A DNA stretch of 64,000 nucleotides, taken from Cenococcum geophilum. Its lineage: Eukaryota. A program made the position numbers and the translations under genes. This document shows positions 1,169 to 28,224 of the stretch, one piece after another. Positions within the stretch are counted from its first letter, which is position 1; the number at the start of each line of letters is the position of its first letter. The notes below the pieces were generated by a model, which was not told where the DNA came from, ran no database searches, and was given only the letters and a program-made list of their open reading frames with translations. The stretch lies in NCBI GenBank assembly GCA_050273025.1, contig CP158635.1, positions 4,650,001 through 4,714,000 of the forward strand, in the 5' to 3' direction.

Positions 1169-1416
1169 TGATAATCGGAAGTCCGTGTACCGATTGTAAG
1201 AAAAGAATGATGACTCTGTCTATTGAATGGTGGCTCTAGAGCCTCTATATATATATAGGAAAGGTGTAGGAAATGAGAACGAGAAGGGGGTAGGGGGGTG
1301 GCAATGGAAACAAGGGGTAGGTGACTGAGTCAATGATCGAGTCAATGATTGAGTCAATGACTGAGTCAATGGGAGGCAGCTGAGTCGGTGATAAGATAAC
1401 CTGATTCAGGTCGACA
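1169..1416 (-). repeat. 5' LTR of Copia 1 (TG...CA, ~248 bp), containing a 12-bp tandem repeat (TGA[C/T]TGAGTCAA)
   Basis: Begins TG at 1169 and ends TCGACA at 1416, where unrelated pol sequence starts. Tandem units at ~1322-1370. Confidence 0.65.
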
Positions 1417-5860: not shown

Positions 5861-6146
5861 GGCAAAGAGGAGCTCACTTAAATCGCCCGCCGACGTCAAT
5901 CACGCATTGTGCGAAGCCAAATCTGGAGCCTCATATAGAAGCTCACCAAACGATCAGCTCAATTACAGATTCAAATGAGCTACGATAGTAGCCGCCACTT
6001 ATTACAAAACGGGCGACACTAAAATACGCGCAACAAATATGATATGGAGCCGATTTGCAACCGAACGTACCCTTACCTGATCGCGTCCCGCATAGCATGC
6101 ATCAACAGTTCCTCTCCCATCGTTTGGCCGCCATGGCTTCTCCCTA

Positions 6147-8187: not shown

Positions 8188-8497
8188 TCCAATAAAAAGC
8201 AAGGGGTTTAACATGCGGGAACTTAAGTATACAGAAACCGGCAGCTTAATAAATCTTTGGGCCACTAATTAGTTGCGAATTCATATTAACAATTGCAAAG
8301 TATCAGAAGTGAAAGCAATGTAGGGAAATTTTTAGTTGCAAGATTAGCGTGGAACGCCATTACTTACAATCCAAACTAGGCTAGGGATCGGAAGCCAGGG
8401 ATCGGAAGGCGGCCACAGATTGATTTGATTTTGATTTTGTTGTGCACGTACACAGTAGGCATGAACGTGGCATATGGATGGAATCGATCGATATCTA

Positions 8498-8698
8498 CGG
8501 AGGACCGCGCGAAAAGCGATTTTCCCCTTCCTTTTTAGGACTAGTGGCTGCCCCCTATAAGGCCCCAGAGTTACGGGCCTAAGCAACAAGATTTTGGGCG
8601 GTTTCCGCCCAAACGTCAGCGTCCTTATAGGCAACCTTATGGGGGAAAATCGCTGATCCCAAAAAGGAAGGGGAAATCGCTTTTCGCGCAGTCCTCCG
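8498..8698. mobile_element. MITE (Tc1/mariner-like, 201 bp)
   Basis: ~45-bp near-perfect TIRs CGGAGGAC[C/T]GCGCGAAAAGCGAT..CCCCTTCCTTTTT, flanked by TA on both sides. Confidence 0.85.
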
Positions 8699-9093
8699 TA
8701 GATAGATGGTTAAGTAGCCCTGCTGCTCAGCTGGCTACTGAGGTGCCAAGCCGGCACGGAAGAACCGTCTCCGTTGTGGCAGCCACGCGGTTGCCAGGAA
8801 AAGTGGCACCACAAAGAAGTCGTCTTGTTTACAGCTTAAATACACAACAACCCTAAAATTATATAAAATAATAAAAATATTAGTATAATATATTACAACC
8901 AGCTCAATTATATAAGCCACTTAAATTTTTAAAGGAATGAGTTGTTGCAGTTTAATAAAGCTATAAAGTTAGGCAACTTTTAAAGTTCTCGGCGATTTAT
9001 TGGTTTTGCGGTGCCACGACTAAGCAATACAAGCACTTCAATATGGCGGGAACAAAAAAAAAGAAATGAAGCTAAATAAGACACCATCGAGCC

Positions 9094-12000
9094 TCAGGCA
9101 CCAAGAAGAATGAAAGGTGCCCATAGAGAAGGCTTACTGTGTGGCTCAGCACGAACGCACATTACTGCATGCCGCAGCGCCTCTGCTATCACTCTCGGCG
9201 TCAGCTGCCCCGTGCCACTCCTAATCAGCTCTCTGTAGAACTCTTCTGCGATGCGAGCGCAGGCGGCATCGTTAGCCGACCAGAGGGCTCCTATAACATG
9301 TTCGAATCCGGCCATCTGGAAAGCGCTAGCGAGATGGAGACCCTCGTCGGCGAACTGGCTCGCCTTGATCTCCGCCGTCGAGCATGCCGAAAGGAAAGCA
9401 ATCAGCAACCGCCGCTCTGCTGCCTCTTTCGAAATCGCCGACATGGTCAGCTTGTCGACTGCTAGTTTGCCGTTGACTTCCTTTTGCAGCAGTAGGTGGC
9501 TTTTAAAGGGTTCCGTGGGATCCGATGATCCGTGGCACGCAAAGTGAGTGACGCTTGACTCGGTCAGCTTCTTGAGAACGTCTCTGGCGGTTCGGAGCCG
9601 TAATTCATCAATAGAATAAAACCCCTTGCAGGCCTTTTGGATGGCGGCACTCTCGGCGTCGACGCCGGGCAGATCCCTCTGGCCGGGCGTTGTCGGCATG
9701 GTGACGAGGAGAATGGAATCGACCTTGTTATCCATGGCGTCTTCCACGGTATACATAGAAGCACGGGATCGGGAATAGGCGAGGGCCTTGATGGTGGTAG
9801 TGTACGAGGGGACGACTCTGTTGAGCGTGTTCTCTACCGATTTGCTCCCGAAGTCAACGCCAGCGGCGTGAAACGGAAAAGAACTGGCGATGCCAGAACC
9901 GATCCACCAAACACGAGGGGGCTGGGCGAGATCGGAGCTCAGGAAACCCATGGCCTCGAGCTGGTCGAGCACCGGTTTCACGCAACTGGTCCACAGCCAC
10001 GAGTATTCGTTGGAGCTCGAATCAGTCTGAGGGTCGTCTGCGCTCATGATAGGCCGGTTGCCGTCATCGACAGCCCTCCTACGTATCGATGCGTGCGCCC
10101 AGTACTTCTGTCGGATAGAGAGAGGCGCGTTTTCTAGTGGCGGCACGGAAAGGCGAAGTGCCTTGGCACCATTGAGCGTGAGGATGATGGCATCACTACT
10201 GATTTCAGAGATATTCACCACCACAATTGGACCCTCGACGGCCTGCTCTTTCAACTCGTCCATCTCTGGAGCCATCTGGAACCGTTCGTACCCCCGAACA
10301 GTCCGGATCTTATCGACACAGTCCTGAATCTCTTGGAGAGCTTCCCTTCGATCCTTGGCGAGTTCTCTCGCAATTACTTCTCTCCATTCGCTTATCAGTT
10401 GACCCTGAATCCCCTCGCTCCACTCTCCAGCGATATCCCCGGGAAGCGTTGTTGTGCGATAGCCCTCAAGCTCCTCCGCATTCACCCTAAGGCGAAGGAA
10501 TTCGTAGCGTCTCGCTAGGTCCTCGTGGTCTTTTCTGAGTGCCATCAGGTCGCTTCGATCCTCGATCATGTAACCGAGGAGGATCCCACGGCCAAACTCG
10601 AGCTGCTGCAGAGCCTTTTCGACTTGTCTCTCCAAGAGACTCAGTGACGCCGCATCGGCAGCAAGACCGCAAACTTGAATGATAACGTACTGCTGGTCCT
10701 CGTGGCTCATATAGCGACGACACGCTAGGGGCACAAGCTTCAGTGCCTCCTCCGCGAGCGTACCTGCCTCAGTCCAATCTTTTTTATGAACTAGGATTGC
10801 AATGGCACCTCGAGCACACTCAATTCGATTGAGCGGAAGGCCATGGGGATTGCGACTTGCTTCTGTGAACAGAGCGAGCGCCTCATTCCTGTCTTGCTCG
10901 CCGGTGCGAATGCATCGATTCTTTAATCCAGTAGCAAGGTTTTGAATGCGGACCACCGCATCACTGTCATCATTCGGCGTCAGGTGTACAGCTTGACGGA
11001 AGTGTTCGATGGCACTATCTAGATCAGCCTCCACCCCACTCGTTTGGTACAGACAGATCAGCCTGGATCCGAGGTTGCTCACGGCGCTGGCGTAGACTGG
11101 ATCGTCCTTTTGTGCCAATTTGACTGATTGCCTAGCTGCTTTGACAGCCTCGTCGAGGTCTAATCTGTTGCGGCTTTCCTCGTAACGGCACTGAAGTAAC
11201 CAACCCAGGGCCTCATACGCAAGAGCGCGGGAAGGAACCGTTTTCGGTGCGGAAGTTATGATGTCTTGCACCGCTTCTGTAGCTTCCTCGAGGCTTGTAT
11301 TATCTCGTTTTCGTTCGAATTTTTTAGCGAGGGCAACAAACAGCAGGTGTAAAGAGACCAGCCTTTTGTAGGCGCCCCTCGGGGACAAGTCAACTGCCTG
11401 TCTTGCAAGCGAGATGGCTTGATCCACGTCGGCCAATTCCCCTTCACACACATACAGGCTGCAGTACACCCTCACAAGGTCATTCAACCACGCTGCCCTG
11501 GCGAATCCTTTCTGACCTGGCAGATCCACGGCTCTCTGTGCTGCATCTCTGGCATCATTGATATCTCTGCTGTCTCTGGTCCTTTCGTATCGACTCGCGA
11601 GTGAGGCCGAAAGGCTGCTCAAGCATTCTGCGAGGACATCTTCTAATCTCGGGTTGACATCAGCCGCTGCCCGAGCATGTTTCACGGCCTCGGTGAGATC
11701 TGATAATTTGCGGCTCTGATCGTACTTGCTGTGGAACCTGCGGCTGAGATTGCTCAAAACTCTCGCCCAGTTCGGGCTGTCTTTTGGCATCAAGCGAACA
11801 ACCTCCTCTGTAGCTTTAATGGCCTTGTCAATCTCAGACAGGCTTCGGGTTCTCTCATAGAATCTCTCATGTAACTGGGCAAGGATGATCAAGAGCGATG
11901 CCCGACGTTCGGCAAGCCGATCGGTAAGATCGTCAATCGATATGAGGGCCTCCTGGACCAATTGGAACGCCTCGTTGAGATCCTGATCACCATTGTACTC

Positions 12001-12549
12001 CGAATATCGCAGATCGAGCGCAGCGGCGAGCTCGTCCATGGCAGCCAAGCGCATATCCTGCCCCTCCTCATCATCAGACAACCTTTTTGACATGGCCAAT
12101 AGTTCTTTCGCTTCCTCGATAGCCTCGTCTAGGTCCGTCTTGTCTCCAGTATAATCGAACAGGTCCTTGAGCATCGGCACGAGGCGGTATAGAATTGTAA
12201 TGCGATCAAACTCTGTTGGCGAGTTTTTTAGGGCTGCACGATTGCACATGATGGCTGTTTTGAGGAGGTTTTCAGGGCGTATTGAGACGTCTTCGGAGGT
12301 CCGGTATCTGTTGTACAGACGTTTTGAGAACATGAAAAGTGTGGATGGGTTCTCGTAGTCAAACTCTAGACATGTTTCCTCCAATTCCTGTTCGTCCGCG
12401 CCTTGAATATTGTAGAAATCTCTATCGGTCTCTTCATCAGAGCCCTTGTCCGCCTCTTCGCCCATAACTTCAACCACAAGGGCGTCTAGTATTTTGTCCA
12501 GCTTTCGGAGAAATTCTTCGCTCAACAAATCCTCCACCGTTTCGGCCAT
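9094..12549 (-). CDS. TPR-repeat + CHAT (caspase HetF associated with TPRs) protease, 1151 aa, intronless
   Basis: Uninterrupted ORF. Repeated helical units (L...Y..TG...DLDEAI..A..AV..TP) across the N-terminal half. C-terminal CHAT domain with the His/Cys dyad intact (HFACHG, FLSACST), AFQMAGFEHVIGALW, and terminal WAPFILLG. Confidence 0.93.
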   Translation of the reverse strand: MAETVEDLLSEEFLRKLDKILDALVVEVMGEEADKGSDEETDRDFYNIQGADEQELEETCLEFDYENPSTLFMFSKRLYNRYRTSEDVSIRPENLLKTAIMCNRAALKNSPTEFDRITILYRLVPMLKDLFDYTGDKTDLDEAIEEAKELLAMSKRLSDDEEGQDMRLAAMDELAAALDLRYSEYNGDQDLNEAFQLVQEALISIDDLTDRLAERRASLLIILAQLHERFYERTRSLSEIDKAIKATEEVVRLMPKDSPNWARVLSNLSRRFHSKYDQSRKLSDLTEAVKHARAAADVNPRLEDVLAECLSSLSASLASRYERTRDSRDINDARDAAQRAVDLPGQKGFARAAWLNDLVRVYCSLYVCEGELADVDQAISLARQAVDLSPRGAYKRLVSLHLLFVALAKKFERKRDNTSLEEATEAVQDIITSAPKTVPSRALAYEALGWLLQCRYEESRNRLDLDEAVKAARQSVKLAQKDDPVYASAVSNLGSRLICLYQTSGVEADLDSAIEHFRQAVHLTPNDDSDAVVRIQNLATGLKNRCIRTGEQDRNEALALFTEASRNPHGLPLNRIECARGAIAILVHKKDWTEAGTLAEEALKLVPLACRRYMSHEDQQYVIIQVCGLAADAASLSLLERQVEKALQQLEFGRGILLGYMIEDRSDLMALRKDHEDLARRYEFLRLRVNAEELEGYRTTTLPGDIAGEWSEGIQGQLISEWREVIARELAKDRREALQEIQDCVDKIRTVRGYERFQMAPEMDELKEQAVEGPIVVVNISEISSDAIILTLNGAKALRLSVPPLENAPLSIRQKYWAHASIRRRAVDDGNRPIMSADDPQTDSSSNEYSWLWTSCVKPVLDQLEAMGFLSSDLAQPPRVWWIGSGIASSFPFHAAGVDFGSKSVENTLNRVVPSYTTTIKALAYSRSRASMYTVEDAMDNKVDSILLVTMPTTPGQRDLPGVDAESAAIQKACKGFYSIDELRLRTARDVLKKLTESSVTHFACHGSSDPTEPFKSHLLLQKEVNGKLAVDKLTMSAISKEAAERRLLIAFLSACSTAEIKASQFADEGLHLASAFQMAGFEHVIGALWSANDAACARIAEEFYRELIRSGTGQLTPRVIAEALRHAVMCVRAEPHSKPSLWAPFILLGA

Positions 12550-12689
12550 GGTACTAGGAGAGTTCAGGCCAGCTAAAGAGAAAGGTTACGAGCACAAAAG
12601 ACGTTAGCAGAGCAACACATTAGTGTCCCCAAGCTGGAGACTAAGGCACAGATTCTGTGGGGAAGGACATTGACGCAGCAAGGCATCAC

Positions 12690-15600
12690 CGGCCAAGATC
12701 CGGGCAGTAACACTTGGCAGTAACTTTACTGCCCGAATCTTTTGCCAAGTTCGATTCTGCCGATGTAAAATCAGTGGCTTGGAGCTTGTTTTTAGTGTTG
12801 TAGATCTTAATTTTAGAGCTATATATTAATTAATTGGCAGAGCTACGGCGTCGCAATTCAGCCATACTTAAGTCGTGATCTGCACCTACATCGTGAGCCT
12901 TAGCGTAGTGTTATATGTGAAAATATTTAATTATAAGGTTTAGAAGGGGTTATAATTCAATCAAATTGCAGGTATTATAATGCAAAGTCTCCGCGGCGTA
13001 GTGGTATAGTAAGTTCTGTAATTGCTTTAATTTAATTTGGAGCTAGCCCAACGTAATTATACCACTTTTCCCGAAGTTCTTAAGTGGCCCATTGGGCCAC
13101 GATGCAAATATATAGGTTTAATATGACTTAGGGCGTTAAAAATAAGATAAGAACAATATGATCAATTTAAAGCCTTACTAATACGTAATTTAATAGAAAA
13201 TAACCTTTTTTTTTAATATTTTTAACACGCTACTAATGGGAACTAAACCCATAACCTTCTACTACCCAATTAGGCTAAGGGCCTCGGCGGTAATGCAATA
13301 AGGCTCATGAGGCTCTGCGGCGATGCAATGAGACTCGGCGCCGAGTATTAGAAGGAAGTTAAGGCTGCTCGGTCACTGCAGGAGAGCCGCAGTGCTCGGG
13401 GTAGTGTCGAAGTTCAGGAGTGTTAATTATTTGGGGTGTCTCTGTCACTACAGTGGCTACTACAGTGACAGAGACACCCCAAATAATCGAGATCGCGATC
13501 GTCAAAAATAGTGTCGCTAGAAATCTTGCCGTAGGGACGTTATCGACGACCCCCCACTAATATCATTAATATCAGTAGCAGGGTCTAGCCAAGTTATAGA
13601 GAACTTCTTTATATGCATATTAAATACAGCGTAAGGTAGTAACTTGGATAGAGTAACGTAGTAAGCCATAAATCACCACTATTAGTTAGGAACGGTCGTA
13701 TTTATTAAAGCTACAAAATAACGTTAAATGGCTACGTCTCTAGTTAACTCTGAGCTAGTATATAATTTCCAAACTAGGCTTAGCCTGCCGTGCACTTAAT
13801 TACTTAGTCGCGTAGGTAGAATAACTATAGCTTATGTCTCAAATTGCGACGACCTAAAGTCCTAAGTATTTAGCTATATAAGGGAGTCGTTAGAGTTATC
13901 GGAATCTTTAGAGTCCCGGCTAAAGGATACTAGTATAGGAGATAGTGAGCCAAATAGACGGACGAATATATTTAACATCATTAACGGTTATTCTTAAGAG
14001 GATTCGTATAAGGTTAATAACTAGGTTAACTAACGTTTCCGCTTATTAACAGCCGCTTATAGTAAGCACTATAATCTTACAGGTGCAGTTAATGCAGGTA
14101 GTGCATTTAATAATATTTCAAGCTCCTTATAAACCCCTACTACTAATCTCTGCCTCTTCTTCTATTAAGATATCTATTGTTTTGCCTACTCTTTATGCTT
14201 TACAGCCCTCTTAGCTTACTTAAGGCCAGTAAGACCACGCTTATTGGCCTTACCCTTCTTCTTAAACTCTACCTTTAAAGTCTAAACCGGATTAGGTAGT
14301 TCTACTAGTATAATATTATCCTTTCTACGCACCCCTTTAAATTTAAAAAGAAGTTGTTAAGTCTACCGCTAAAATAAGTCTATAAGAACTTCTGCTTACT
14401 TAGTAGGGTATAATTTAGTAATTGCGTTATATACTACAGTTGCCGCACCTAACGCTATATCTGCTCCGTTATTACTAAAGCGGTTGCCGTTAGTAATAGC
14501 TTTATTGTTGGGACTAAGTTAGGTATTATAACTTAGTTACTAATTAAATCTAATAGTAGACGGCCCGTTAAGTAGCTATTAGGGGTAAAGAAGGCTCAGT
14601 GGCAATAACACTAATTTCTATAGAGCTTTTTCCATCTAATAATAATATAGGAGGCTATATCAAACAGGAAGATTACAGTCGCCTTACTCTAAATAGCAGC
14701 CGTATTTACTATAGCCGTCCTTAGTATTAAATCTTCGTATATAGAACTCTAAGAGTCGCTAATACGTGCAAGTAATAACGTAATTGCTTTTAAGCGGCCT
14801 ATACTTCTTACTGTCCTTAGCGAGCTGGCCGAACTGTCTATAGTTAGATTTAACGACTTCCTATTTATCCCATATAAGCCTAATAGCCTTATTAGTTACT
14901 TAACCCTATAGTAACTAAAATATATAAGTATCTTAAAGCCGGAAAGACTCCCTATAATCCTTATATTCTAATCTCTTATACTCCTTAAACTTTTTATTAA
15001 TTACCAACTTAATCTAATTAACGACTTCTAGCAATGTAAGGTCCTTATATAACCTTACTTTTATCACCAAGTGAATTAATTCACCCCTCTATAAGGTATT
15101 GGCACTGAGATTACAATAACGACAAGTATAAGCCCTATTAAAGTAGGCCTCCCTTAGGCCCTAGTGATCTTTAATTTTAAGAGCCTCTGGCTAGTTAAGT
15201 TAACGTATAAGTATATTATAATTGGCTTCAAGTTTGGCGGGACTCTCTAACTTAGTATATGCCCAAATTAAGTCCTCTAATGTCTTCCGTTTCTCCTTTA
15301 AGTACTTACTACTATTAACTAATATAGTCTTAATATTTTTAACAACGTGCCACTCATAGAGTTGCATCTGGATATCCTCCTAGATAAGCTTTTTGGTAGC
15401 TAATATAAAGCTAGCTCCCTAATCGCCAATATAAACTTTTAGTACGGGTATATCGTAGAATATAAACTTATTTATAAAGTTGTGCATCTCTTTAAACACC
15501 TGCTTAGCCTTAGATATAATAATTAAGTGCATAATTAGAACTGTCTTGCCGGTATTTATTGTTGTTATTATAGTTAATAGCGGCATGCGGAGCTGGTTTG

Positions 15601-17259
15601 TAGAGAATGTCGTATTAGTATAAATATAGAAGCTAGAGGTAAATCAACGTATAAAAGCAATTTATTTAGGAGTTGCAAAGGTAAGTTAAACAAGGACTTA
15701 AGAGGTAGGGTTACCTAGGGAGAAGAATAAGTTAGTATTAAGTCAGTGGTAGATAGCAAATAAATATCCCAGGCGCTTTAATACCAAAGTACTCCGAGAC
15801 ATGCTACCGCACGGTTAGATTATTGTATTTAGTGGATCCTACCATACTAATTTGTAACTTAGATATACCGGAAAATGCCACATTATTTATGCTGCCGGGA
15901 TTAGGGCCGAAGGTCGTTTATCCAATAAACCCGAATCTACTGTAGTAACTTATTCCTTTCCTGTTCTTTCTTTAAAGCTATAAGATACGCCTATTTAGAA
16001 GGCCGGCAAGTAATCTAGATAAAGGGGAATGTTCTTCTTAATGGGGTCCTGTTATTGCTTAGATATTATAATCGCCCTAATCTTGCTATTGCCTTAATCT
16101 TACCACCTCTTAGATCTTATTAAATGAGATAGTAAGCTTACCTATTTTAGTATTAACTTCCGTATAGATACGCAAGCAAGTATAGAAGCCGGCTTGTTGG
16201 AGAGCCGAATGGAGCTCCGTAAATCGCTCCTGCTTTATTACACCTCCTATCTATTTACCTTAACGAACTTACCCTCCCATATTCCAGTAGTCGCGACTAC
16301 TTATTAGTGGCAAGTTGTTAGCGGATAGAAGCCGCCGTACCTCTCCTACGGATGCATTGGCAGCTTAGTAATTAAGGGCTTCCGCTATAGTTGCTGCATA
16401 CTATAGCCAACGGCTCCTGTATTTTAGAAGAGAGAGAGGATTTAGTATAGCTACGCAGGTATATATACCATTATTGACTTTTATAACCTAGGTAATAACT
16501 CCTTCGTCTATATACTTGTAAGTAGAGACGTAATAGGGACAATTCTTCTTTAAAATCTTTCTATTTAGCCGCCTAAGTAATTAACCTTCCTTATCCTGCC
16601 GCTAGCGGTCATCCTTAGTAAGCTTTTAATAGTTACAAGTCTCTCCACCATAAGCTTTACATTTCATATAGAGTCGCTATATAATTCAGCCACCACTTAT
16701 ATAGAGCTCGCGGCCTTAAGAGAACGCGTAGTTATTAAAGCGCTGTACTACTAAGTTTTAAGTTTCGTAGTGCTTACCAGCTTCCGGCTCAAGCAAGTGT
16801 TTAGGAGGGATTAATTAAATAGCTACCTGCATTGCCGCAATCGCGTTCTCATTTCTTAGCTTCTCGTAAGCCTTCCATTTAACTGACAGAGTTTCCTAGG
16901 GCGCGGCGGCAGGAGTAACTGAGGTAGGAGCGTCCATTTTGGATGAGAATCTTGGTGTAGAGCGTAGGGAGCCATTGCCACGTATTTATGTAGAGCTTGG
17001 GTGGCGATTAAGCGGTGTTGATTGACGAATCTTGGCGGTAACGAAAGTATGTACGTGCACCTCCGTTTAACCGTGCGGCAGCCTGCGGGGGCTGCCGGGG
17101 TGGGGGGTATTTGGTGAACATTGCATTTGTATGGCTTTTACTAGTAAAATAGGTGCCCGAGTAGTGCCTTGGCTGCCCTGACCGCCTGCTAAACCGCCGC
17201 CGATCGAAAGATTCGGGCAGTAAAGTTACTGCCAAGTGTTACTGCCCGGATCTTGGCCG
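12690..17259 (-). mobile_element. Mutator-like element (MULE), 4570 bp, RIP-inactivated transposase (~14000-16937, minus)
   Basis: Perfect ~53-bp TIRs (CGGCCAAGATCCGGGCAGTAACACTTGGCAG...). 9-bp TSD AGGCATCAC at 12681-12689 and 17260-17268. MULE core remnant resembling DTTFSTNQLRMPL at ~15580-15630. Confidence 0.92.
13426..13487. repeat. 62-bp palindrome inside the MULE
   Basis: 24-bp perfect arms ATTATTTGGGGTGTCTCTGTCACT / AGTGACAGAGACACCCCAAATAAT around a 14-nt centre. Confidence 0.9.
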
Positions 17260-17506
17260 AGGCATCACTACCTATCACATATCGGGGGGGGTCATTTGGC
17301 TCGGTTACGGCCCAGGTTAATACGAGGTTAGGGCCACCCCTGCTGATAATTGGCGCGAACCCCGCACGAGGTCGCGCAGCGACCGCCCCCGAGTACCTTT
17401 GCACGCGATTTTGGGCGAAAAGGTACATAATTTAAGTTAGATCGGTACACTTCTGGACAGTCGCGTAATATTGCTCTAAATTTCAAACACCCAAACGCGT
17501 GCCATT

Positions 17507-17752
17507 CCTATATTAAGGCGTCTCAGTTACTATAATATAGTCCTATATTAAGACGTCTCGGTCGCTAAAATATAGTCCTGCATTAAGGCGTCTTAGTCAC
17601 TATAGTATAGTCTTATATTCAGGCGTCTCAGTCACTACAGTGTAGTCTTATATTAAGGCGTCTTAGTCACTGCAGTAGTCCTATATTAAGACGTCTTAGT
17701 TACTGCAGTGCAGTCCTATATTAAGGCGTCTCAGTTACTATAGTAGTCCTAT
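17507..17752. repeat. ~30-bp tandem repeat (CCTATATTAAGGCGTCTCAGTCACTACAGT.. consensus), about 8 copies
   Basis: Directly visible recurring TTAAGGCGTCT[C/T]AGT unit downstream of the Crypton CDS. Confidence 0.85.
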
Positions 17753-18179
17753 AATAAGATAGTATTATATATATATATATACTATTTAATACAGAGCCTT
17801 TCCCTCTCTCCCCTACCCCAAAAGCTAGCAGTTAGATATTCTTATAAAGCCAATCTAAAGAACGCCGGCCCCATAGCTGCTCCAGCTAGTTAATAGCCTA
17901 TCTCTTATCTCTTACCATACCGTCTTCTACGCGCCGTCTTATATCCTTAATTATCCTACAGCAACGGCTATAGAACATAGCCTCGCCATTAACCCGCTAG
18001 CGCGCCCCCCAGCAGCGATCAAGAGCTTCAATTAACGGCCTACCTACTAGCCCTAAAGTCCACTCAGCCTAGAGCTAGAATACCGAATTACCGCCCCAAA
18101 GCATCTTATATTTTCTTAGCGGCGCCTATAGGTTAAGGATAAATAGGAGAGGTAGTTAAGTATCTACTTATGCCTACGC

Positions 18180-18357
18180 TAGCGGGGGCGGCGCGGATAT
18201 AGTAGATAGCTAAGCGGGGGGTGCGGATATAGTAGACAGCTAAGTGGGGGGTGCGGATATAGCAGATAGCGAAGCGGGGGGTGCGGATATAGTAGACAGC
18301 TAAGCGGGCGGTGCGGATATAGTAGATAGCTAAGCAGGTGGCGCGGATATAGTAGAC
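18180..18357. repeat. 30-bp tandem repeat (GCGGATATAGTAGATAGCTAAGCGGGGGGT), about 6 copies, a Pro/Ser linker in the Crypton ORF
   Basis: Visible repeat units; the minus frame reads (LSTISAPPA.)n. Confidence 0.85.
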
Positions 18358-21300
18358 GTTATAGTAAATATTATAGTAAACGGTAGATATACGGACTCCG
18401 TAGGCCCTATCTAAATACCCGTCTTTCCTTACTAGATCTATATAGGTGCAGGTACGAATAATACTAATAACCTTTCCATCTCGCTAAGGCGTTCTAAGAT
18501 CATATATACGTGTAACTAAACCCCCTTAATCTCTAAGATTGCGGCCTTATATTTTAGCTTAGCTACGGCCTTATAAGCAGGCCAGTATTTCCACATTATT
18601 AGTTTATTTAGCGTAACTACGTTAGCTAGCGAGCTTTCTACCTATATAGCAAACCTCTAGTACTCCTTATAGCTAAAAAGGGAGTCCTTCTATAGGGGGT
18701 AGAGCGGGAACTACTTATATAGGATTACTAAGTCCTATAATAGGATTACCCTAAGCGCACAGAGGAGGCGTAAAAATCCTAAGCCCGTAAGGTCAAGCCG
18801 TACGACCTTATTATCGGCCCTGTCTAGGTAGTAGGTCTCTATATGTTTTAGCCAGACATTAGTCTTAGGCCATATCTTTAAGCAGAGGGCCTCCTCTAGC
18901 ACCTTCCGCGCGCAGGAAAGAAAGTAGCCCTTTCCCTCCTTTAGGAAGCCGGCGATCAACCACATAAACGCACGGAGTAGGTAGCTAAGGTAGGCTCCCA
19001 TTATCGCGTCCGTATTCCAGCATCCAGCCTATCTAATTTAGGTCTCCTTAACGCCGCTAAGCTTAGCGTGCCAGACGCTCTGCTTATAGACGCTATAGGT
19101 TTTCTCTTTTAAGTAAATCCCTACCCCCTAGAATATCTTCTTATTCTATTTAAACTGCGTATAATAGCTTAGCGGCTGTTGCGGTACTTTAATGCTACTA
19201 GGGAAGATATATAGGTTATAGTAGTCCTTTAGCTACTAAAAGGATGGGAAGCTCTTAGCGCCGTCTTTACCCTAGCGGTTAAAAAAGTAGAAGGCTATTA
19301 TAGAGAGAGGGCAGAGGATAGGGTTAGTATTATACATACAGCCCATATACTTAACCTTGCCGTGCTAATTCTGCTTCCCCTATATTATTAATATAATTAT
19401 ATATAGCGCTAGCTCGTCTAGTTTAGGCCCTTTATTCTCTAGTTTAATAAAGGCAAGGTTAGTAAGCTAAATATCCCGTCTACTTTCACCCTAGGTAACG
19501 GTAGTATAGCCTAAGAAAAGGAATAGGTTAAAAAACGGTAGCCGTATAGACTAGTAATATACAAACCTAATAAATACTTAGCTATAGTTTAAAGGTAAGA
19601 CTTAACTAAACCCGGCATTTTAGAGCCCGTCTCCCAGCACCAAATAATCGCCCTTTTAAGCCCTTTAACGTTATAGCCGCCAGTAATTATAAATAGGCCT
19701 CAGTTAATAAAGTTAACGCGTTAAATCCGGTCCTTGTCGCGGCGAACGCTGTCTAGTATCACTAAGAGCTTCGCCCCCCATAGCGGCTGTGAGGCCTTGC
19801 CTTCCAATTACCATATATAAAGCTCAGTAATAGCGGAGACGTAGCTATTTATAACTAAGTATCGGACTATCTTATTAAAAAGGGCGTCTAGGGCCTCCTC
19901 ATCCCATATCTCTCCTTCCTCGTCCTTTATAGCTTCTTCCCCTACAGCTACGGCTGCCCCTACGGCTGCCTTCCCCCTAGCTGCCCTCCCACCTTAGCCA
20001 TCTTCTACCTCTTCTTCGCCCACTTACCATCTTTCCACATCTCTTTCCGTTTTAACTTGCGTTTTTAATAGCCAGCAGCCTATGATTCTTAGTTAATAAC
20101 TTACTACTCTAAAAATAGGTAAAGCTTATCTTCCGTTACCTAGGCGCCGTTTATATTGCCTTCCAGTCTCGCGTACTAGTCTTCCTACTTTTTCTACTTT
20201 AGCTTATACGCCCTTATAGTATTCTTTAAGCGCTAGGCCTTATAAATATCCTATAGCCGCGCTATTTAGGCCTTAAATTCGCTCTAGAGGCTATAGGGGG
20301 GGGAGGCTAAAGGGGCTTCCTTTAGCCGTAAAGTAGACCGTAGGGTAAGAAGATTCTTAAAAGACTCTATATCCGTAAAAGGTAAGGGGGAGACACGTAA
20401 GCGCGGCGCGGGTAAATAAAGCCACTAAACGCGTAAATATTATAGAAGAAGAAGAAAAGAGCTCTATATTATAGAATTAGAATTACAGTAGGCCTTTCTA
20501 TATAAAATCAGAAGCCCTACGCGAGCCATCGCGGGCACAAGAACAGTAGAGGGTTGGAAAATAGATTGTCGAGGCGACAATGAGGTCGAAGGCGCGCTGA
20601 GGCCCTCTATACTAACCCAGTACTAACCTAGGCCTCAAAAACGCGTCCGAAAAGTAGGGGCCACCACCTAGGGGGGGTGCGATATTTGGACGATATATCA
20701 AGGACCTTAGGGGCTCGTACGTAACCCGAGGTTATGCCAAGCCTAACCCTGACCTCCGATACCTACCTACCTAGCTTACATTATCAGGGCACCCACAATA
20801 CTTTCTGTGCAGAGTGCTGCTGGCGATTTGGGGATGGATTGTTAGGGTCAAATCAATGTGTCGGGTGGCACGGAAGAACTGGGTAGGGAGCAACCATCTG
20901 CATTTCGCGAGCGAAGTGCAGAGTGAGGCTCACCGGCCAGTAATAAGGCAGGCATTCCCAAAGGCTGTTTCCGAAGATGGGGCACATGCAGGACACCTAA
21001 ATGCAAGTCGACTTAACGTGCATAACCGCCATTAGCTGCTGGACCCCTCCACTGGTCGCGAGAAGTGATTGATGGCTTTGACCATTGGATAGCAAAATAA
21101 GCCTTTTTGAAGAAAATCAGATTCCAAATGAAAAGACAGTAAAGTAGCTTATGCTCATTATTTCGTAGGCCGCGATGAATCTCGAGCTTTACATGATTAC
21201 TATCGTAAACGGTTCAATGGAATGTTTCCAGCTGACTGATTAACTTTCAGCCAGCTGGATGCCTCTTTGCACGTCATTAATATTCTCCATTCCAGTAGCA

Positions 21301-21385
21301 GCTCTCTGGTAGTCTCGTATAACCGCATTTAGTCCTTGCAGCTGTGGTGCCGCCCGCTTTACGCCTTCGTCATTCTGAAAATTTC

Positions 21386-22481
21386 CTAGCTTTGAACCCC
21401 ACTGGTACCAGAGACAAAAACGATGAGAACCGTAGCGTATCTAACAGGAATCGTATCAGCCTAATATCAGCGGTGACATCTTGCTATCAAAACAGGACAA
21501 GATATGACGATACTCACGTTGCAGCTGCGAGAATCAGCTCTATAGTCCTCGACTTTGTCAATCCAGAGAGTATGAGGAGAAAAAGGATCGTAGACAGCAT
21601 GACAATAACTATCCGAATCGAGGTAGTTTTAATGATATTGCAAATGACGACTGGCATCAGCAGAATAACTGTTACTAAGAACAAGAGTAATACTTTAGCA
21701 ATTCGTTTAATCAGTTGTCCGGAATACATATATACGTTTGCATCGGTTGAAACATCATAAAAACGGCTCCACTAGTATCGTTAGTCTACTATAATGATTC
21801 AGGGTTTTCTCTTACATCTCGAAATCCTCGATAGAAACGAATCAGTTTGTCTTCTACCCAAGCTTCGAGCTGTATTACCGCACTGTCCGCCACTGGAGCC
21901 AAGGAAGCTAGCTCCCTATGATGTGCAAGGTACGCCGTTTCTTCCCTAGCTAGACAGCCGGTACCGTCAAGCCAGTTCTGCAGGCTCTTAACATCTCTTC
22001 TCTGAGCACTGCCGAAACTCAACATCCGGTAGGTTCTTTCGGCGAACTGGTCTGCCTTCCGTTAACTCGTTGTTATGATTAGCTAATCTCCGCATATACC
22101 GTAATCTGCAAGACATGATTCAATATCCGATAGAAGAGATGTCCGGTCCGTGTTCTTATCACACCGACTCTTTCCAAGAAAGAGAAGAGAGGTCTCTTGT
22201 TGATCAATCTGTTCTAGCCTCTGTTCGAGCATAGACAACCTGTCCTGCTTTAACAAAAGGATTCGAGCCCGAAGCTTGTTGAAACGCCGGCATAAGAAGA
22301 AATGGTCATATGCTGAAATAAGCGCAGTGAAACGGGGATATCCGAGTTTATAATCCTCGACTAGACAGTGTTAGTCGAAGTATTTGTGTGAGGGGGAAGA
22401 GATACTTCTCTTGTCGTGCCTTTGGTTTATACTTGTGTTCGAGGGTTTCCAAAGCGGAAGACATGATTTGAGTGGTTTCAT
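21386..22481 (-). CDS. DUF6594-like protein with C-terminal transmembrane helices, ~293 aa, 5 exons (22481-22406, 22360-22100, 22051-21816, 21771-21518, 21440-21386)
   Basis: Four GT-AG introns join into a stop-free frame. EDYKLGYPRFTALISAYDHFFLCRRFNKLRARILLLKQDRLSMLEQRL, DVKSLQNW, then three hydrophobic stretches ending AATYATVLIVFVSG match the DUF6594 pattern as I recall it. Start codon uncertain. Confidence 0.82.
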
Positions 22482-22881
22482 CTCAACATCGATCTTTATC
22501 TTAGAAAAATCGAGCTAGATGGTGCGATTTGTATCATAGAAGGTTTTGCCTAGCATAATAGTATCAGCGATCTTGAATGAGGCTGACGTGCTAGGTAGGT
22601 GTGAGGACACCAATTAAAATCTGTCACGTTGATGATGTACACTGCCAACAAATGCGTGCATACCGTACGCCTCTTTGACCGCTTACGGGTAAGTCAACAA
22701 GGCGTCTTTGAAGGCGCATTCAAGCGCCTTTATTGAGGTCTTTTCTGATAGTGTCAAGTTCGGCAGTAAGGCTATAAAAGCATGTCCCTCACCTATAAGG
22801 TATTGGTGACCCAAGCACTCCCGTCACAATCCTCTCACGGCAGGCCAACTTAACCACTGAAATACCTTCGGTTATTACAAT

Positions 22882-23241
22882 ATGTCTGCTTCCGAAGGGT
22901 TCGTATTGCTAGCTTTTCTGTAGCCGACGTTGTATTAATACTTCGGGATCAGTGACCAAAATCTCAACTTTACGGAAGTTGGCAAGCGCCCTTCTGTCAC
23001 AACTTATACCCAGGTTCGTGGCCTGAATGAGAATCAGACAGCCTTACTGAAAAACATCTTGTAGAGACCAGAATTTCATGTAGGAGACAAGGTGTATTTG
23101 CTTAACGCTGACGGAACTCGCGAGGGGCCTTTTATTATCGCCTCCGTTCCCTCCGCTGGAAGGTATACTGTGAGCCTTGAAAACGGGGAGGCCGTTAAGA
23201 ATGGCGAAGAGGTAAAAACAGATTGCTTGGAAGCTGTGTGA
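22882..23241 (+). CDS. Small 84-aa protein, possible SH3/KOW-like beta-barrel, 3 exons (22882-22898, 22953-23013, 23065-23241)
   Basis: Two introns, both with GTTCGT donors and YAG acceptors (54 and 51 nt), give a 255-nt open frame: MSASEGDQNLNFTEVGKRPSVTTYTQRPEFHVGDKVYLLNADGTREGPFIIASVPSAGRYTVSLENGEAVKNGEEVKTDCLEAV*. Confidence 0.72.
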
Positions 23242-23717
23242 AAATATTGGGTCCATTTGGTCTCTGGTTCGAAGGTGACCATCACAGCGGTAGCTATTAA
23301 ATGTTTATGCAACCTGTACCCTGTCTTATTTGTAGCCTTGCTGTCTCAAATGCACTTCGCCACTCTGACAGTCTCTTTTCTCTGCATCGCAAATTTGCCG
23401 GTCGTGACACTGTACGCCTTGCAGATTGTTGCCTAACTGTGGTGCCCAGCTGCGACTTTGCAAGGAAGCCGCTTGAAGATGAGCGCCTAGTTTCCCACTG
23501 CCTCGGCTGCTTCCCGGCCATTCACCACGATAGCTCGACTGAGTTCACTTCAAATCACCTTGTCGACACCCTGTAGACGATCTTTTGCTCTGTACTTTAT
23601 CTAAGGTTTCTATTCCTCCTCTTAACTTACTTGAACCCTTTCTCCCATTCAATGCTGGCTGCACACTCTCCTTGTGGCTTATAAGCTCTTGGGGCCCTCC
23701 CTGACTTCATTTGGACA

Positions 23718-25667
23718 ATGGATATTCAGAATACTGTCCTCAAACATTACGCGATATTGATCGGGATCAACACTTATCCAGACAAGCCTTTGAAAGGTTG
23801 CGTGCAAGATGTCCAAAACATTAAGAAATATCTGGAAGGAGCAGTGAACCCCGTTCAGATACAGATATTCACGACAGCTGATTCCGGTGGTGCACACTCG
23901 CCCAGTCTACCCGTAGACCCGATGCCCAGGCCAACATACAATAATGTGATTTCGGCCCTCGAGAGGGTCAAAAATCAGGCAAATACCGGAGACTATGTTT
24001 ATATTCATTTTTCTGGACATGGCACCCGAGGAAATCCATACGGTGAATTCTCCAACAAGTCAACAGGAGACCTGGCGCTGGTTTTGCTCGATGGAAGAGA
24101 AGAGAGCAAAGTGAAATGTCTTTGGGGCCCAATACTAGCTTTTTGGCTTAATGCCATGGTTAATAAGGGATTGGTACTCACCCTTGTCCTTGACTGTTGT
24201 TTCTCTGCGAGTGTCTACCGTCGTGATGATAATGTCCGTTTTGTCTCTTACGACGCTGAGAACGATACGAGGTTCCCACAAGATGCTCTGGACTTTGAGA
24301 GACACCTCAAACTTGGAACTGGCACTCCAGCGAGCCGGGACGCTTCCATGCGCCTAAACTGGCTGATCAAGCCAGATGGATACGCAATACTCGCCGCTTG
24401 TGGTCCTGACCAAGAGGCGCGTGAATTCGAAACCGAAGACAAAAAGAAACATGGAGCTTTGTCTTATTTTCTGCATAGAATCTTAAATGAACCAGGTGGT
24501 CTTGGGAGACAACATCGAGATATTTACAAGCACTTGTGTGCTGGATTCGAGAGATCCTCAGTGGAACAAAGCCCTGCACTTTATGGGAACAAGGACCAAG
24601 GCTTCTTTGGACCTGTCAGCTTCCAGAGCGACACAACTCTTATCCCAATCATCAAGAAACAGAACGGGAGCCTTCAACTGCAAGCTGGTCAAGCCCACGG
24701 TATTTGCAATGGCGACCGGTTTGCCCTATTCCCGTTTACTTGCACAGATCCCGACTCAAGCTTGAAAGAAAACACAGCGGTTTCTAAGGTAACCCATACC
24801 AGAGCTCTCACCTCGAATCTAGAGTTAGTAGGCACGACGTTCATCCACATTCAAACAGGATGGCTCGCAAAGCCCCTTACCCGATTCTCTCTTCACAAGT
24901 TCCCGATACGACTCGCTGCTAACCTTCCAAGTCGGGATGAATTGCTGGCGTCTTTAAAAGAACGATCACTTGATGCTCATATCGACACTAAGGGGAATCC
25001 AAGTTGTTTTCATGTTATACTGAATAGCGAGAAGGAATACGAGATCCTGGATCAGTTTGATCAGAGGATCGTCAATCTACCTGCAATGCCGCAAGCTCAA
25101 ACGGACGTCTACCGTATTTCTGACACCATAGAGCACCTGGCTAAGTTCAAATTGGTCAAAGAACTGACCAACGAGGCACAGACACCTTCTTTTCGAGAGT
25201 CGTTCAACGTTCGAATCATCGATGTCTCCGGAAACATTCATAATCCAGGATCTCTGGTAAATGTTCAAGAGTGTGAAGCGTTTCATTTAGAGGTGGAAAA
25301 CAAAGGAGCCAAGGAGCTCTATGTCCATGTTTATTGCTTGGATCCTTTTCAGGAAGTACAGAATATTTACTGCGGGAGTTATGAAGTTATTCCTCCTCGG
25401 CATGATAGCGAGAATTTCCTAGGAATGATGAAGAAGGCGCTGAAAACGGGTGTCCCATATGAGATGAAGAAAAAGCACCGTTGGTGCGAAGACATTCTCA
25501 AAGTCTTTATTACCTCCCAGCCGACTTCATTTGACTTACTGGAGTTACCTAAACTCGGTGACCTAGCCAAGCGGAACGAAACTAGCACAACTAGCCGAGA
25601 TGGTGGTAATCTTGAACCAGAGGATTGGGCTGCACTGAATTTCATGGTCCACACGTATATCACATAA
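23718..25667 (+). CDS. Caspase-family (peptidase C14) protease with C-terminal extension, 649 aa, intronless
   Basis: YAILIGINTY..LKGCVQDV; catalytic His (HFSGHG) and Cys (VLDCCFS); p10-like ILAAC...EARE...HGALSYFL...QSPALYG; then ~350 aa of additional beta-rich sequence. Confidence 0.92.
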   Translation: MDIQNTVLKHYAILIGINTYPDKPLKGCVQDVQNIKKYLEGAVNPVQIQIFTTADSGGAHSPSLPVDPMPRPTYNNVISALERVKNQANTGDYVYIHFSGHGTRGNPYGEFSNKSTGDLALVLLDGREESKVKCLWGPILAFWLNAMVNKGLVLTLVLDCCFSASVYRRDDNVRFVSYDAENDTRFPQDALDFERHLKLGTGTPASRDASMRLNWLIKPDGYAILAACGPDQEAREFETEDKKKHGALSYFLHRILNEPGGLGRQHRDIYKHLCAGFERSSVEQSPALYGNKDQGFFGPVSFQSDTTLIPIIKKQNGSLQLQAGQAHGICNGDRFALFPFTCTDPDSSLKENTAVSKVTHTRALTSNLELVGTTFIHIQTGWLAKPLTRFSLHKFPIRLAANLPSRDELLASLKERSLDAHIDTKGNPSCFHVILNSEKEYEILDQFDQRIVNLPAMPQAQTDVYRISDTIEHLAKFKLVKELTNEAQTPSFRESFNVRIIDVSGNIHNPGSLVNVQECEAFHLEVENKGAKELYVHVYCLDPFQEVQNIYCGSYEVIPPRHDSENFLGMMKKALKTGVPYEMKKKHRWCEDILKVFITSQPTSFDLLELPKLGDLAKRNETSTTSRDGGNLEPEDWAALNFMVHTYIT

Positions 25668-25718
25668 GATATTGATGATACGTTTTACCGGCTGATGCAT
25701 TGCTGAATTGGCTATGAA

Positions 25719-26505
25719 TTATACACCAAAATGAACATACGGAATCCAGTGTAATGATCCTATCTTTTCGTCATCCTCGCCGTCAGATGGAATAAAGAAC
25801 CTCAGCATCATATGATCTCTTCAATTCCTGTCACTTGCATTCCTAGTTCTCGTCTGGTCCTCGACTAAAGGAACGCTTGTCTCCTTGACTGGTGTGCTTC
25901 CACGTCTGGCTTTTGATGACATATTTAGCCAACAATTCCGAAGCTCTCTAGTAGCTTTATGAAGCCCCAACACATAGATTCGTCTGTCATGCCTCCATCT
26001 CTCATCTCTTCATACATGATTCTTGCCATGTCCACACATAACTCATCATTGACCTTCCACAGAGTGCCAATAACGTGCCGAAACCCTGCTAGTTGGAAGG
26101 CACTGATCAGGTGAATGCTCTCCTCCACGGACCTTTCATCTCTGAATTGACTGGTACCACAAGCCGAGAGATAGGCGAGAAACGGTGCGTATTGCCGGAT
26201 ATCCATCTCTAGAAGACTTCTAGCATTAGCGGATCATCCTTCCCACTCTCAAGAAGCAAATGGCTTTTGGATGGGTCAATGTCATCTGTACAGCCATGGC
26301 CAGCAAAATGAAATATCTGGCATCACAGCAAATGTGATATGACATCTTTTATGCGCAGGCTGAGCTTGATAGGGCCGAGACTCATTGATTCACACAGGCT
26401 ATGCAATATCGTCGCCTCTTTGGTTGCGAAGGGAAGCGGAGAATCCCCTGGTGTATGCTCCATAGCGACAAGAAGCGCCTAGCCTGAGGTAGATGGTGGA
26501 ACTGA
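25719..26505 (-). pseudogene. C-terminal CHAT protease domain pseudogene, convergent with the caspase gene
   Basis: ALLVAMEHTPG..LPFA, FHFAGHG, AYLSACGT, AFQLAGFRHVIGTLW and terminal WIPYVHFGV*. Contains stops and two frameshifts; TPR region absent. Confidence 0.88.
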
Positions 26506-27108
<603 letters not shown>

Positions 27109-28224
27109 CAGCGAGGAGACTATGGGCAGCCTTTAGATGGCCCGTTTTTGGACTAATTCAAGAGTGGCCTAGTTTTGGGCCACCACATGTTTGCGGCAGG
27201 CTGACAACCCCCGGTGGTGTCGTTCGCGTAAAGTTGACAGAATCGTCGGCATGGTGACCATCCGGCATATTAGTATCAACAATAAAGGACAAGGAGTTGT
27301 AGGCAACTAAACCAAGTTTAGATGTAAAAGTGAGGTGAAGGTGAGCGTCCTAAGCAAGTGGTGGTACAGGTTAATTAAGGTTGAGCCGAAGTTGAGCCGG
27401 ACGTTATTTTTGTAATATACAGGGGTTACGAAGCTAACCCAGAGAAGAAGTCAAGGGAGGTCAGTTTTCATTATGCACTAGCGATATACTCTATCCCTAA
27501 GACTAACCCTACTAATATCTATTTCCACTTTTAGACCTAAGCTTTTATAGTTTTAAGCTAAGCTTATAGCTGTAATCCTAAGTCGGCCTTAGCAGACCTA
27601 AGCATATCTAAGCATAATAAAGGGTTAAGCATATACTTGTCGTATTGGCCTGAAACTAAGACACCCCTTTTATAGATGGCCCAGTTTTAGGCCACTTTCT
27701 TGCTAAACGGCCCAGTTTTGGGCACTATCTAACACTTTTATTAACAATCGGGCGATGTAATATTTTAGATCTTTACATAACAAATCTAGGGCTATAAAAA
27801 TTATTATAATTAGTCTAGTAAATGTTACTATATTTTAGTTTAAACATCCTTATTAAAGCACCAATTGTGGAGACAAAGCCATTAACCATTATTAATTTTT
27901 ACCGTTTGGCCCCTTTCCTTAATATTTATAGTAGAAAAGCTGCAATCTAGCTAATGTATTGCCTATAGATCTGCTTTACACATTCCTAGCCGTCTAATTG
28001 CTCCTATATCGCCGCTGCCGTTCTATTGTTTATATCTAAATGTTAAACCGGACAATTAAGTATAAGAACTCTATCTATTTTGTATGGCTCTAAGGCCTCT
28101 ATATATACTTAGGATAGATTTAAAATAGGTGGGTAATTAAAATAGGTGATATATAACTGGAATAAGGGGTGGTAAGAAGTAGGCATTAGAAACAGAATAA
28201 CTATGTCCAAACGTGCTTAATACA

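Follow-up and report, generated by a model that had tools for sequence, protein, structure and literature searches.

The closest described relatives of the locus considered here are fungal and bacterial clusters in which a protease gene lies beside the gene for a membrane-acting protein. In Podospora, a protease that joins tetratricopeptide repeats (TPR) to a CHAT peptidase domain cleaves the gasdermin encoded by the neighbouring gene, and gasdermin clades keep to one protease type (Clave et al., 2022, PMC8851545), while bacterial gasdermin operons are reported to set a clan CD protease beside a membrane effector (Johnson et al., bioRxiv 10.1101/2021.06.07.447441). Here we describe an arrangement in Cenococcum geophilum, a fungus symbiotic with roots, within a 64,000-nucleotide stretch of DNA (GenBank assembly GCA_050273025.1, contig CP158635.1, positions 4,650,001 to 4,714,000 of the forward strand) that is called the window throughout. 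The genes in question encode a TPR-CHAT protease (TPR-CHAT1), a membrane protein of the DUF6594 family (PF20237), a small protein predicted to form a barrel, and a caspase-like protease of family C14, beside which lies CHAT2. A preceding sequence-only reading had counted these as five genes, three of them for clan CD proteases; four are intact, two of these encode clan CD proteases, and CHAT2 is a relic, a fragment spread over three frames. Comparison with other genomes shows the locus to be a partly eroded copy of a recurrent fungal module in which DUF6594 is paired with a cysteine protease of clan CD. In the DUF6594 clade to which the window copy belongs, this protease is a TPR-CHAT gene that follows in tandem downstream. 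The small barrel gene stands head-to-head with DUF6594. By the same comparison the association of the genes exceeds chance, and they are probably linked in function.

Linkage was judged by two proxies, namely gene models that join DUF6594 to its neighbours and metagenome loci of the small gene; locus-tag adjacency gave no information, the species of the DUF6594 and TPR-CHAT1 matches having no usable overlap. A scan of 1.84 billion representatives with P0006, an annotated C. geophilum DUF6594 protein (hypothetical protein V2W45_1228407), returned 1813 matches at E <=0.001. Among the best 150 of these, seven exceed 500 aa and six of the seven carry a clan CD protease, which is CHAT in P0182 (Elasticomyces) and P0188 (Annulohypoxylon) and C14 in P0189 (Rostrohypoxylon), P0201 (Achaetomium), P0207 (Hypomontagnella) and P0279 (Lasiodiplodia); the seventh, from Curvularia, is joined to a methyltransferase. 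Two of the 54 "longer" matches to the N-terminal exon of DUF6594 (P0021 from Trizodia and P0058 from Dactylonectria) join TPR-CHAT, so that DUF6594-protease joins amount in total to eight models from eight fungal species of several orders, every one with a single protease type. The order DUF6594 then TPR-CHAT in P0021, P0058 and P0188 is that of the window once both of its transposons are left out, and the C14 part of P0201 is homologous to residues 1-597 of the window C14 protein (33% identity, E 7e-86). All eight joins coincide with boundaries of DUF6594 exons, either ahead of "..EDYxxGYPRF" or following "..AGAT", and, fused or merged, these models represent same-strand adjacency in eight species.

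The second proxy concerns the partner on the other side. Five of the seven metagenome loci are informative upstream of the small gene (L001, L002, L003, L005 and L006) and three downstream (L002, L003 and L006). Upstream, the small gene is head-to-head with DUF6594 in three of the five (L003, L005 and L006), with a gap of about 0.7 kb in L005 and L006 and of 4 kb in L003, the latter across an insert resembling products of repeat-induced point mutation (RIP), and the pair is kept down to 32-45% DUF6594 identity. Downstream, a full-length C14 gene, 58% identical, follows the small gene in one of the three (L002); this locus is closely related (70-79% DNA identity), and its C14 gene may therefore be there through shared descent. 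With the joins in eight species, the three head-to-head loci lend support to the earlier proposal that the genes form a functional group.

To compare partners with descent, a quick maximum-likelihood tree was built from 118 near-full-length DUF6594 domains (at least 216 profile positions) out of 199 profile-matching proteins. The four CHAT-linked rows and the window protein share one 51-row clade (support 94 in the Shimodaira-Hasegawa-like approximate likelihood-ratio test), and the four C14-linked rows lie outside it; one change is enough to account for the protease labels, as it is in 16-17 of 500 shuffles. This is suggestive, on sequence data, of a tendency of protease type to follow DUF6594 clade, and the separation of CHAT-linked from C14-linked copies argues for alternative proteases, not a serial cascade. 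Among the metagenome loci, the DUF6594 of L003 stands next to the window copy on the tree and those of L005 and L006 fall in distant clades, a distribution that suggests, less than firmly, that the tie of the small gene to DUF6594 is old or was made repeatedly.

Three exon open reading frames (ORFs) of the window DUF6594 gene match PF20237 at 65.4, 37.8 and 44.8 bits (cut-off 30), and its gene model opens with all 276 residues of P0006, identical throughout; P0006 itself reaches 166.6 bits, with profile positions 1-232 of 238 covered. An alternative start, ATG 22464, was rejected, P0006 and a Leptodontidium relative both supporting ATG 22481. The AlphaFold2 model (32 sequences; predicted local distance difference test, pLDDT, 70) begins with a disordered stretch and continues with a long helical hairpin (residues 53-80 and 96-124), further helices, and hydrophobic C-terminal helices at 210-237, 241-262 and 265-275; the protein is hence predicted to combine a helical N-terminal portion in the cytosol with three transmembrane helices near its C terminus. 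The hairpin loop, residues 81-95, is rich in invariant residues (E81, L85, L87, R91 and D93), and invariant R98 stands just past it, where the second helix begins. When prokaryote genomes were scanned with a DUF6594 pattern, none of the 111 pattern matches was confirmed, which is a weak negative.

The small gene is, on comparative sequence evidence, a real coding gene. A large protein collection holds just five relatives of its product, including an annotated protein from Xylaria curta, and there are the seven metagenome loci besides; against three related loci, its exons align with 0 gap columns in 255 and its introns with 6-12. At codon position 3 there are 25-29 mismatches in 85, vs 9-16 of 85 at positions 1 and 2, and the ATG and stop line up. 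No Pfam family matches the protein at E up to 10. The "small beta-barrel protein" of the sequence-only reading is nonetheless recovered in an AlphaFold2 model (11 sequences, pLDDT 93), a five-stranded barrel whose best PDB matches by Foldseek are the Tudor domains of PHF20 and PHF1 (template-modelling score 0.67-0.72, E 3e-3 or weaker; root-mean-square deviation 2.5-3.0 over 57-59 columns; 19-25% identity), and which is thus Tudor/SH3-like by likeness of predicted fold, not by family membership. Its profile hidden Markov model, run against the 324 proteins collected, matched its own five relatives and no fusion, an Atlas look-up (query P0005) gave scores <=0.89 and no usable lead, and prediction of a complex between DUF6594 residues 25-205 and the small protein gave no answer (score 0.02).

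Both intact proteases keep the motifs of their families. In TPR-CHAT1 the CHAT domain occupies residues 850-1150 (PF12770, 109.7 bits vs a cut-off of 24), the N-terminal part is helical and TPR-like with weak TPR_2, TPR_1 and Sel1 matches, and the motifs HFACHG and LSACST, which we take to hold the catalytic His and Cys of the CHAT family, are present and align with those of P0058, to whose CHAT part the protein is 33% identical. Its full-length relatives reach 68% identity in Cudoniella and about 50% in several fungi, and TPR-CHAT proteins of Streptomyces, Nocardia and Nonomuraea are about 29-32% identical over more than 90% of the length; the family is common to fungi and actinobacteria. The C14 protein carries its protease domain at residues 10-290 (PF00656, 65.4 bits vs a cut-off of 21.4), with the SGHG and DCC motifs conserved relative to P0201, and its C-terminal part of about 350 aa matched no Pfam family; in the Atlas it falls among caspase clusters of 636-700 aa from Ascomycota and Basidiomycota, with structural relatives in bacteria. 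The CHAT2 relic is 5'-truncated: tblastn with the TPR-CHAT1 protein gives two high-scoring segment pairs in frames -2 and -1, tblastn with P0021 gives three (55%, 59% and 38% identity) in three frames over P0021 residues 851-1103, and the CHAT profile is covered in a single ORF just at positions 179-259. An intact second CHAT gene was ruled out by the missing 5' part, the frameshifts and the in-frame stops. The relic is of the P0021/P0182/P0188 type and TPR-CHAT1 of the P0058 type, and both types occur adjoining DUF6594. At the same position in L002 (6886-7404, minus strand) lies a 173-aa TPR_10 fragment, convergent to the C14 gene and resembling the P0021 repeats, and sequence comparison suggests that a second-type TPR-CHAT gene may once have been there in both the window and L002.

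Features of the window, with positions on the 64,000-nucleotide stretch
Feature	Position	Strand	Remarks
TPR-CHAT1 gene	9094..12549	-	one intact exon, 1151 aa; CHAT E 2.3e-31
MULE with 9-bp target duplication	12681..17268		element 12690-17259; interior RIP-like
Crypton-like element, degraded	17269..20764	-	NDC10_II, GCR1_C, read through stops
DUF6594 gene	21386..22481	-	5 exons (22481-22406, 22360-22100, 22051-21816, 21771-21518, 21440-21386), 293 aa; PF20237
Small gene	22882..23241	+	3 exons (22882-22898, 22953-23013, 23065-23241), 84 aa
Upstream exon of minus-strand spliced RNA entering the DUF6594 gene	22793..23281	-	X8 contig 21
Peptidase C14 (caspase-like) gene	23718..25667	+	one exon, 649 aa; Peptidase_C14 E 7.9e-18
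CHAT2 relic	25722..26493	-	last ~250 codons of a second-type TPR-CHAT gene; two frameshifts, in-frame stops
Dim1 (rRNA adenine dimethylase) pseudogene fragment	26583..27107	-	RrnaAD E 7.6e-40, profile positions 41-222 of 263

The genes occupy an island of normal GC content (9.1-27.2 kb) embedded in RIP-degraded repeats, and a second GC-normal island begins at 62 kb. Most of the window is AT-rich (GC 0.29-0.40) and about 60 kb of it consists of RIP-like repeats, with dinucleotide ratios that are typical of RIP by the usual thresholds (TpA/ApT 1.3-1.9; (CpA+TpG)/(ApC+GpT) 0.26-0.8). The C. geophilum genome as a whole is reported to be repeat-rich and to carry RIP (PMC12910237, PMC5023957). The four intact ORFs are free of RIP signs. 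The spacings given by the sequence-only reading held up on checking: 400 bp separates the ATGs of the divergent DUF6594 and small genes, 54 bp lies between the C14 stop and the CHAT2 relic (about 50 bp had been read), and the distance from the DUF6594 stop to the TPR-CHAT1 ATG without both transposons, put at about 0.8 kb, comes to about 0.78 kb by coordinate arithmetic. Abutting the CHAT2 relic is the Dim1 fragment, which has two in-frame TAG codons at expected Trp positions and then a frameshift, and which is context outside the module.

Both transposons were likewise found where they had been placed. The Mutator-like element (MULE), read at 12690-17259, has terminal inverted repeats of 53 nt that are 100% complementary and the target-site duplication AGGCATCAC on both sides, 9 bp being the typical length for such elements. 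Its MULE domain (15335-15616, minus strand; E 1.3e-4) reaches 22.8 bits, below the Pfam cut-off of 27.6, after RIP-like decay; perfect ends and an intact duplication thus persist despite a RIP-like interior and a sub-threshold transposase match. The supposed Crypton at about 17280-20761 is a Crypton-like element with an NDC10_II domain (E 4.1e-29, 18660-19511) and a GCR1_C domain (E 9.1e-6, 17877-18110) on one strand, Ndc10 domain 2 being presumably related to Crypton recombinases. Within it, tandem arrays at 17503-17745 and 18156-18386 hold five copies spaced 35 bp and six spaced 30 bp, and the 30-bp array translates into a repetitive ORF. Together the two elements push TPR-CHAT1 8 kb from DUF6594, with the MULE inserted about 140 bp upstream of the TPR-CHAT1 ATG. 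Two DNA sequencing runs, X5 and X7, which are labelled as another organism (organism B), carry the unique parts of the stretch with 0-5 differences per contig; in them the MULE has multi-copy depth and the Crypton-like element a very high summed depth, with loose ends at 20763-20765 that mark its right edge, and no contig in either run bridges an empty transposon site.

Other content of the window was surveyed by Pfam. No gasdermin appeared in six-frame scans of 1-9101 and 12690-21002, although Pfam may miss divergent fungal gasdermins, nor in the ORFs of the island genes, in 26480-27402 (minus strand) or in ORFs of at least 70 aa from 27-64 kb; the scans likewise gave no other known executioner in the island and no Cas7-11/gRAMP domain in the window. 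As for a CRISPR array beside TPR-CHAT1, the direct repeats located at 12.4-21.2 kb are transposon-internal 30-35-bp tandem arrays. Reading through stops in the left flank (1-9000) recovers a copia-type reverse transcriptase degraded by RIP (RVT_2, E 1.8e-17) and part of an AMP-binding enzyme (E 2.1e-10). On the plus strand at 62318-63999, an ORF with ankyrin repeats behind a PF17111 domain (PigL_N, which we take to be the former HeLo-like N-terminal domain of STAND proteins in fungi) opens the next island, an immune-type gene 35 kb off. In L006 (6706-16465 of a 65.7-kb contig), a protein kinase gene lies downstream of DUF6594 on the same strand, a 637-aa DUF7580 protein is encoded convergently to the small gene, and a gene of HET-NB-ARC-TPR type, resembling NOD-like receptors (NLRs), is nearby.

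Of the 24 sequencing runs listed, 20 contain the region at 21.3-25.7 kb; six have records that class them as RNA. The informative one, X8, is a root metatranscriptome represented by assembled contigs; because the run was selected for this stretch, its depths give no fair ranking of genes, and rare spliced forms may have been dropped. One X8 contig (depth about 480) is DUF6594 RNA with introns 3 and 4 spliced as in the model. Adapter letters bound contig 21 (depth 561) at 23281 and at 21139; it links 22792 with 22548 over an intron (22549-22792) that reads GT..AG on the minus strand, and its upstream exon covers the whole small gene in antisense and could represent antisense control of that gene or a long 5' leader. 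No plus-strand spliced RNA of the small gene is among the X8 joints shown. A further contig of depth 14 runs continuously from 23418 across the C14 gene and the CHAT2 and Dim1 relics. The RNA run X21, with 242 reads, mostly 90-95% alike, on the transposons and the last exon of a paralogue, is uninformative on the module genes.

As an explanation of the whole, the one we put first, tentatively and at a little short of an even chance, is that the module acts in the manner of gasdermin-protease clusters. Its specific mechanism, protease-triggered membrane damage, is drawn by analogy and is possible, if rather questionable. By analogy with the Podospora TPR-CHAT/gasdermin pair and with bacterial gasdermin operons, the repeat-bearing protease would sense a cue and cleave DUF6594, for which the invariant-rich loop 81-95 between the two long helices is a candidate site, and the membrane part, once released by the cut, would disturb membranes. 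For the small protein a role as adaptor, inhibitor or guard is proposed, and the 649-aa C14 protease would be an alternative activator, not a relay step, because C14 pairs with other DUF6594 clades elsewhere. In C. geophilum, one CHAT gene has decayed and TPR-CHAT1 may be poorly expressed. A bolder version, which we regard as doubtful, would make DUF6594 a third class of executioner of regulated cell death in fungi beside HeLo/HELL proteins and gasdermins, inhibited by its N-terminal hairpin and released by a sensor protease cutting the loop; the sensor would be TPR-CHAT in one clade and a 650-aa C14 protease in others, an 84-aa Tudor-like subunit would guard or deliver it, and certain lineages would make a single membrane-anchored polypeptide out of protease and executioner.

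A number of observations count against a gasdermin-like module. What is proposed of cleavage, binding and toxicity is built from sequence, structural models and analogy. The joined models may be merged neighbours and not true fusions, in which case they attest adjacency at most. None of the 120 TPR-CHAT1 homologues listed carries PF20237, which implies that most TPR-CHAT genes have other partners; L001 and L002 have the small gene without DUF6594 upstream (the upstream DNA of L002 is RIP-like repeat), and L005 and L006 show no CHAT or C14 gene, in L006 none in the whole 20-kb locus. The tree has eight labelled tips, was quickly built and has support under 95, and once the three locus rows are included, two changes are needed for CHAT and two for C14, with 42 of 500 shuffles scoring as low. 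Compared by Foldseek with the PDB and by VIA-align, the DUF6594 model recovers generic helical hairpins alone and no solved fold (best Foldseek E 1.4; VIA Z <=9.5, within the stated noise for helical models); these methods, which may miss such a likeness, detected none to the four-helix bundles of HeLo or MLKL. At the RNA level, the dominant DUF6594 RNA in X8 keeps the 48-nt intron 2 (22052-22099), with an in-frame TAG, and uses a 59-nt GC..AG intron (22361-22419) instead of the annotated 45-nt one, which leaves neither upstream ATG in frame; the longest ORF of this RNA has 172 aa and begins at Met122, giving the membrane half alone. TPR-CHAT1, with the MULE in front of its ATG, has a depth of 0-2.8 in X8.

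The rival that survives best casts DUF6594 neither as substrate nor as executioner: it would be an anchor or regulator in the membrane, keeping the CHAT or C14 protease there to act on other targets in signalling, quality control or processing, with the small barrel protein as adaptor or substrate. It is as simple as the effector reading, and four models with a complete C14 directly in front of DUF6594 would amount to a membrane-tethered protease, in line with a DUF6594 model that has no pore-former-like fold; moreover, the association seen does not itself give a direction. Yet the joins may be merged gene models, and in known fungal and bacterial clusters the partner is the cleaved effector (PMC8851545); we consider an anchoring role fairly unlikely.

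The sequence-only reading had favoured a serial cascade in which the TPR-CHAT sensor activates the C14 protease, which in turn cleaves the membrane protein, the small protein or both. The presence of the four genes in one island, the recurrence of both protease types with DUF6594, and a C14 gene following the small one both in the window and in L002 speak for such a cascade. Against it, none of the eight joined models holds both proteases, protease type tends to follow the DUF6594 clade with the window on the CHAT side, and the supposed third protease, CHAT2, is dead; just one of three informative loci has C14 behind the small gene, L003 and L006 being without it there, and that one locus, L002, has C14 without DUF6594 and is explicable by the shared descent noted above. 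The cascade is accordingly disfavoured, and we hold it improbable.

Comparably little credit can be given to the absence of any functional link, whereby expanded, fast-evolving CHAT, C14 and DUF6594 families would gather in repeat-rich compartments and the joins would be accidents of annotation. The setting invites it, with an island among about 60 kb of RIP-like repeats bordered by CHAT2, Dim1 and AMP-binding relics, a PF17111 and ankyrin gene at 62-64 kb, and an NLR near the L006 pair. Random merging of neighbours would, however, yield varied partners, and clan CD genes make up, by estimate and not by count, well below 1% of the genes of fungi; because six of the seven long DUF6594 models carry such a protease, in a set of joins that reaches eight species of several orders, chance co-location is unlikely, and the clustering of partner type on the tree and the retention of the small-gene/DUF6594 pair to 32-45% identity speak the same way. 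That the module in C. geophilum is a dying remnant without present function, whatever its role elsewhere, is again a slender prospect, suggested by the CHAT2 relic, the two transposons between DUF6594 and TPR-CHAT1 (one 140 bp from the ATG), the near silence of TPR-CHAT1 and the unproductive main DUF6594 RNA in X8, and countered by four intact, RIP-free ORFs that X5 and X7 carry with 0-5 differences per contig, and by the inability of one RNA sample, with depths biased in runs chosen for the stretch, to demonstrate silence.

The sequence-only reading knew of no description of this arrangement, and literature searches agree: the full-text literature searched, with subscription journals outside its coverage, contains no mention of DUF6594 or PF20237, and searches for CHAT or caspase-like proteases with fungal membrane clusters led to gasdermin work and reviews in which no DUF6594-protease pairing is described. 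DUF6594 is a large family for which the recurrent tie to caspase-like proteases is a first functional lead, and the tie extends beyond gasdermins in fungi the rule that a protease gene stands beside that of its membrane effector. Two or three genes make a simple test system, in which naturally joined forms indicate which proteins should touch. Were DUF6594 indeed a protease-gated effector, fungal immune-type cell death would have more executioner families than the two now studied, and many TPR-CHAT and C14 genes without a gasdermin neighbour would gain a candidate target; were it an anchor instead, it would reveal where these proteases act.

Among known systems, there is a likeness to Tudor-SN, a conserved substrate of caspases and metacaspases through which the Tudor fold is tied to clan CD proteases in cell death; the 84-aa protein has no nuclease part, and the likeness is one of fold alone. 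Clusters of the NLR/HeLo type (NWD2/HET-S) also make neighbours of a sensor and a membrane executioner, in a genomic setting similar to that found here, but signal by amyloid templating and not by proteolysis (PMC10197012, PMC12881547). Craspase, the type III-E CRISPR Cas7-11 effector with Csx29 and Csx30, has the same TPR and CHAT architecture and is reported to cut the product of a neighbouring gene (PMC9729208, PMC10028731); at the C. geophilum locus there is no Cas7-11, CRISPR array or RNA guide, Csx30 is not a DUF6594 protein, and the resemblance is in logic alone. Unlike the bacterial gasdermin operons, the present locus is eukaryotic and has introns. A further parallel is offered by the fungal gasdermin/HET-Q2-like clusters (het-Q1/het-Q2; Q1-6 with Q2L-6), in which the same kind of TPR-CHAT protease adjoins a membrane-acting protein, and which are likewise recurrent across Pezizomycotina, with one protease type per partner clade, among NLR-like genes (Clave et al., 2022, PMC8851545). 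TPR-CHAT1 falls within the "S8 or CHAT protease with repeats" definition of such clusters. Partner cleavage is known there, the partner is a gasdermin and the second protease an S8 subtilase (PMC8851545); here the relationship is known from genes, the partner is an all-helical DUF6594 protein with three predicted transmembrane helices, the second protease is a 650-aa C14, and a small Tudor-like gene is attached. The principle of a protease gene beside a membrane effector is a known one; what is new here is the family of the effector, the C14 protease as partner and the gene for the small barrel.

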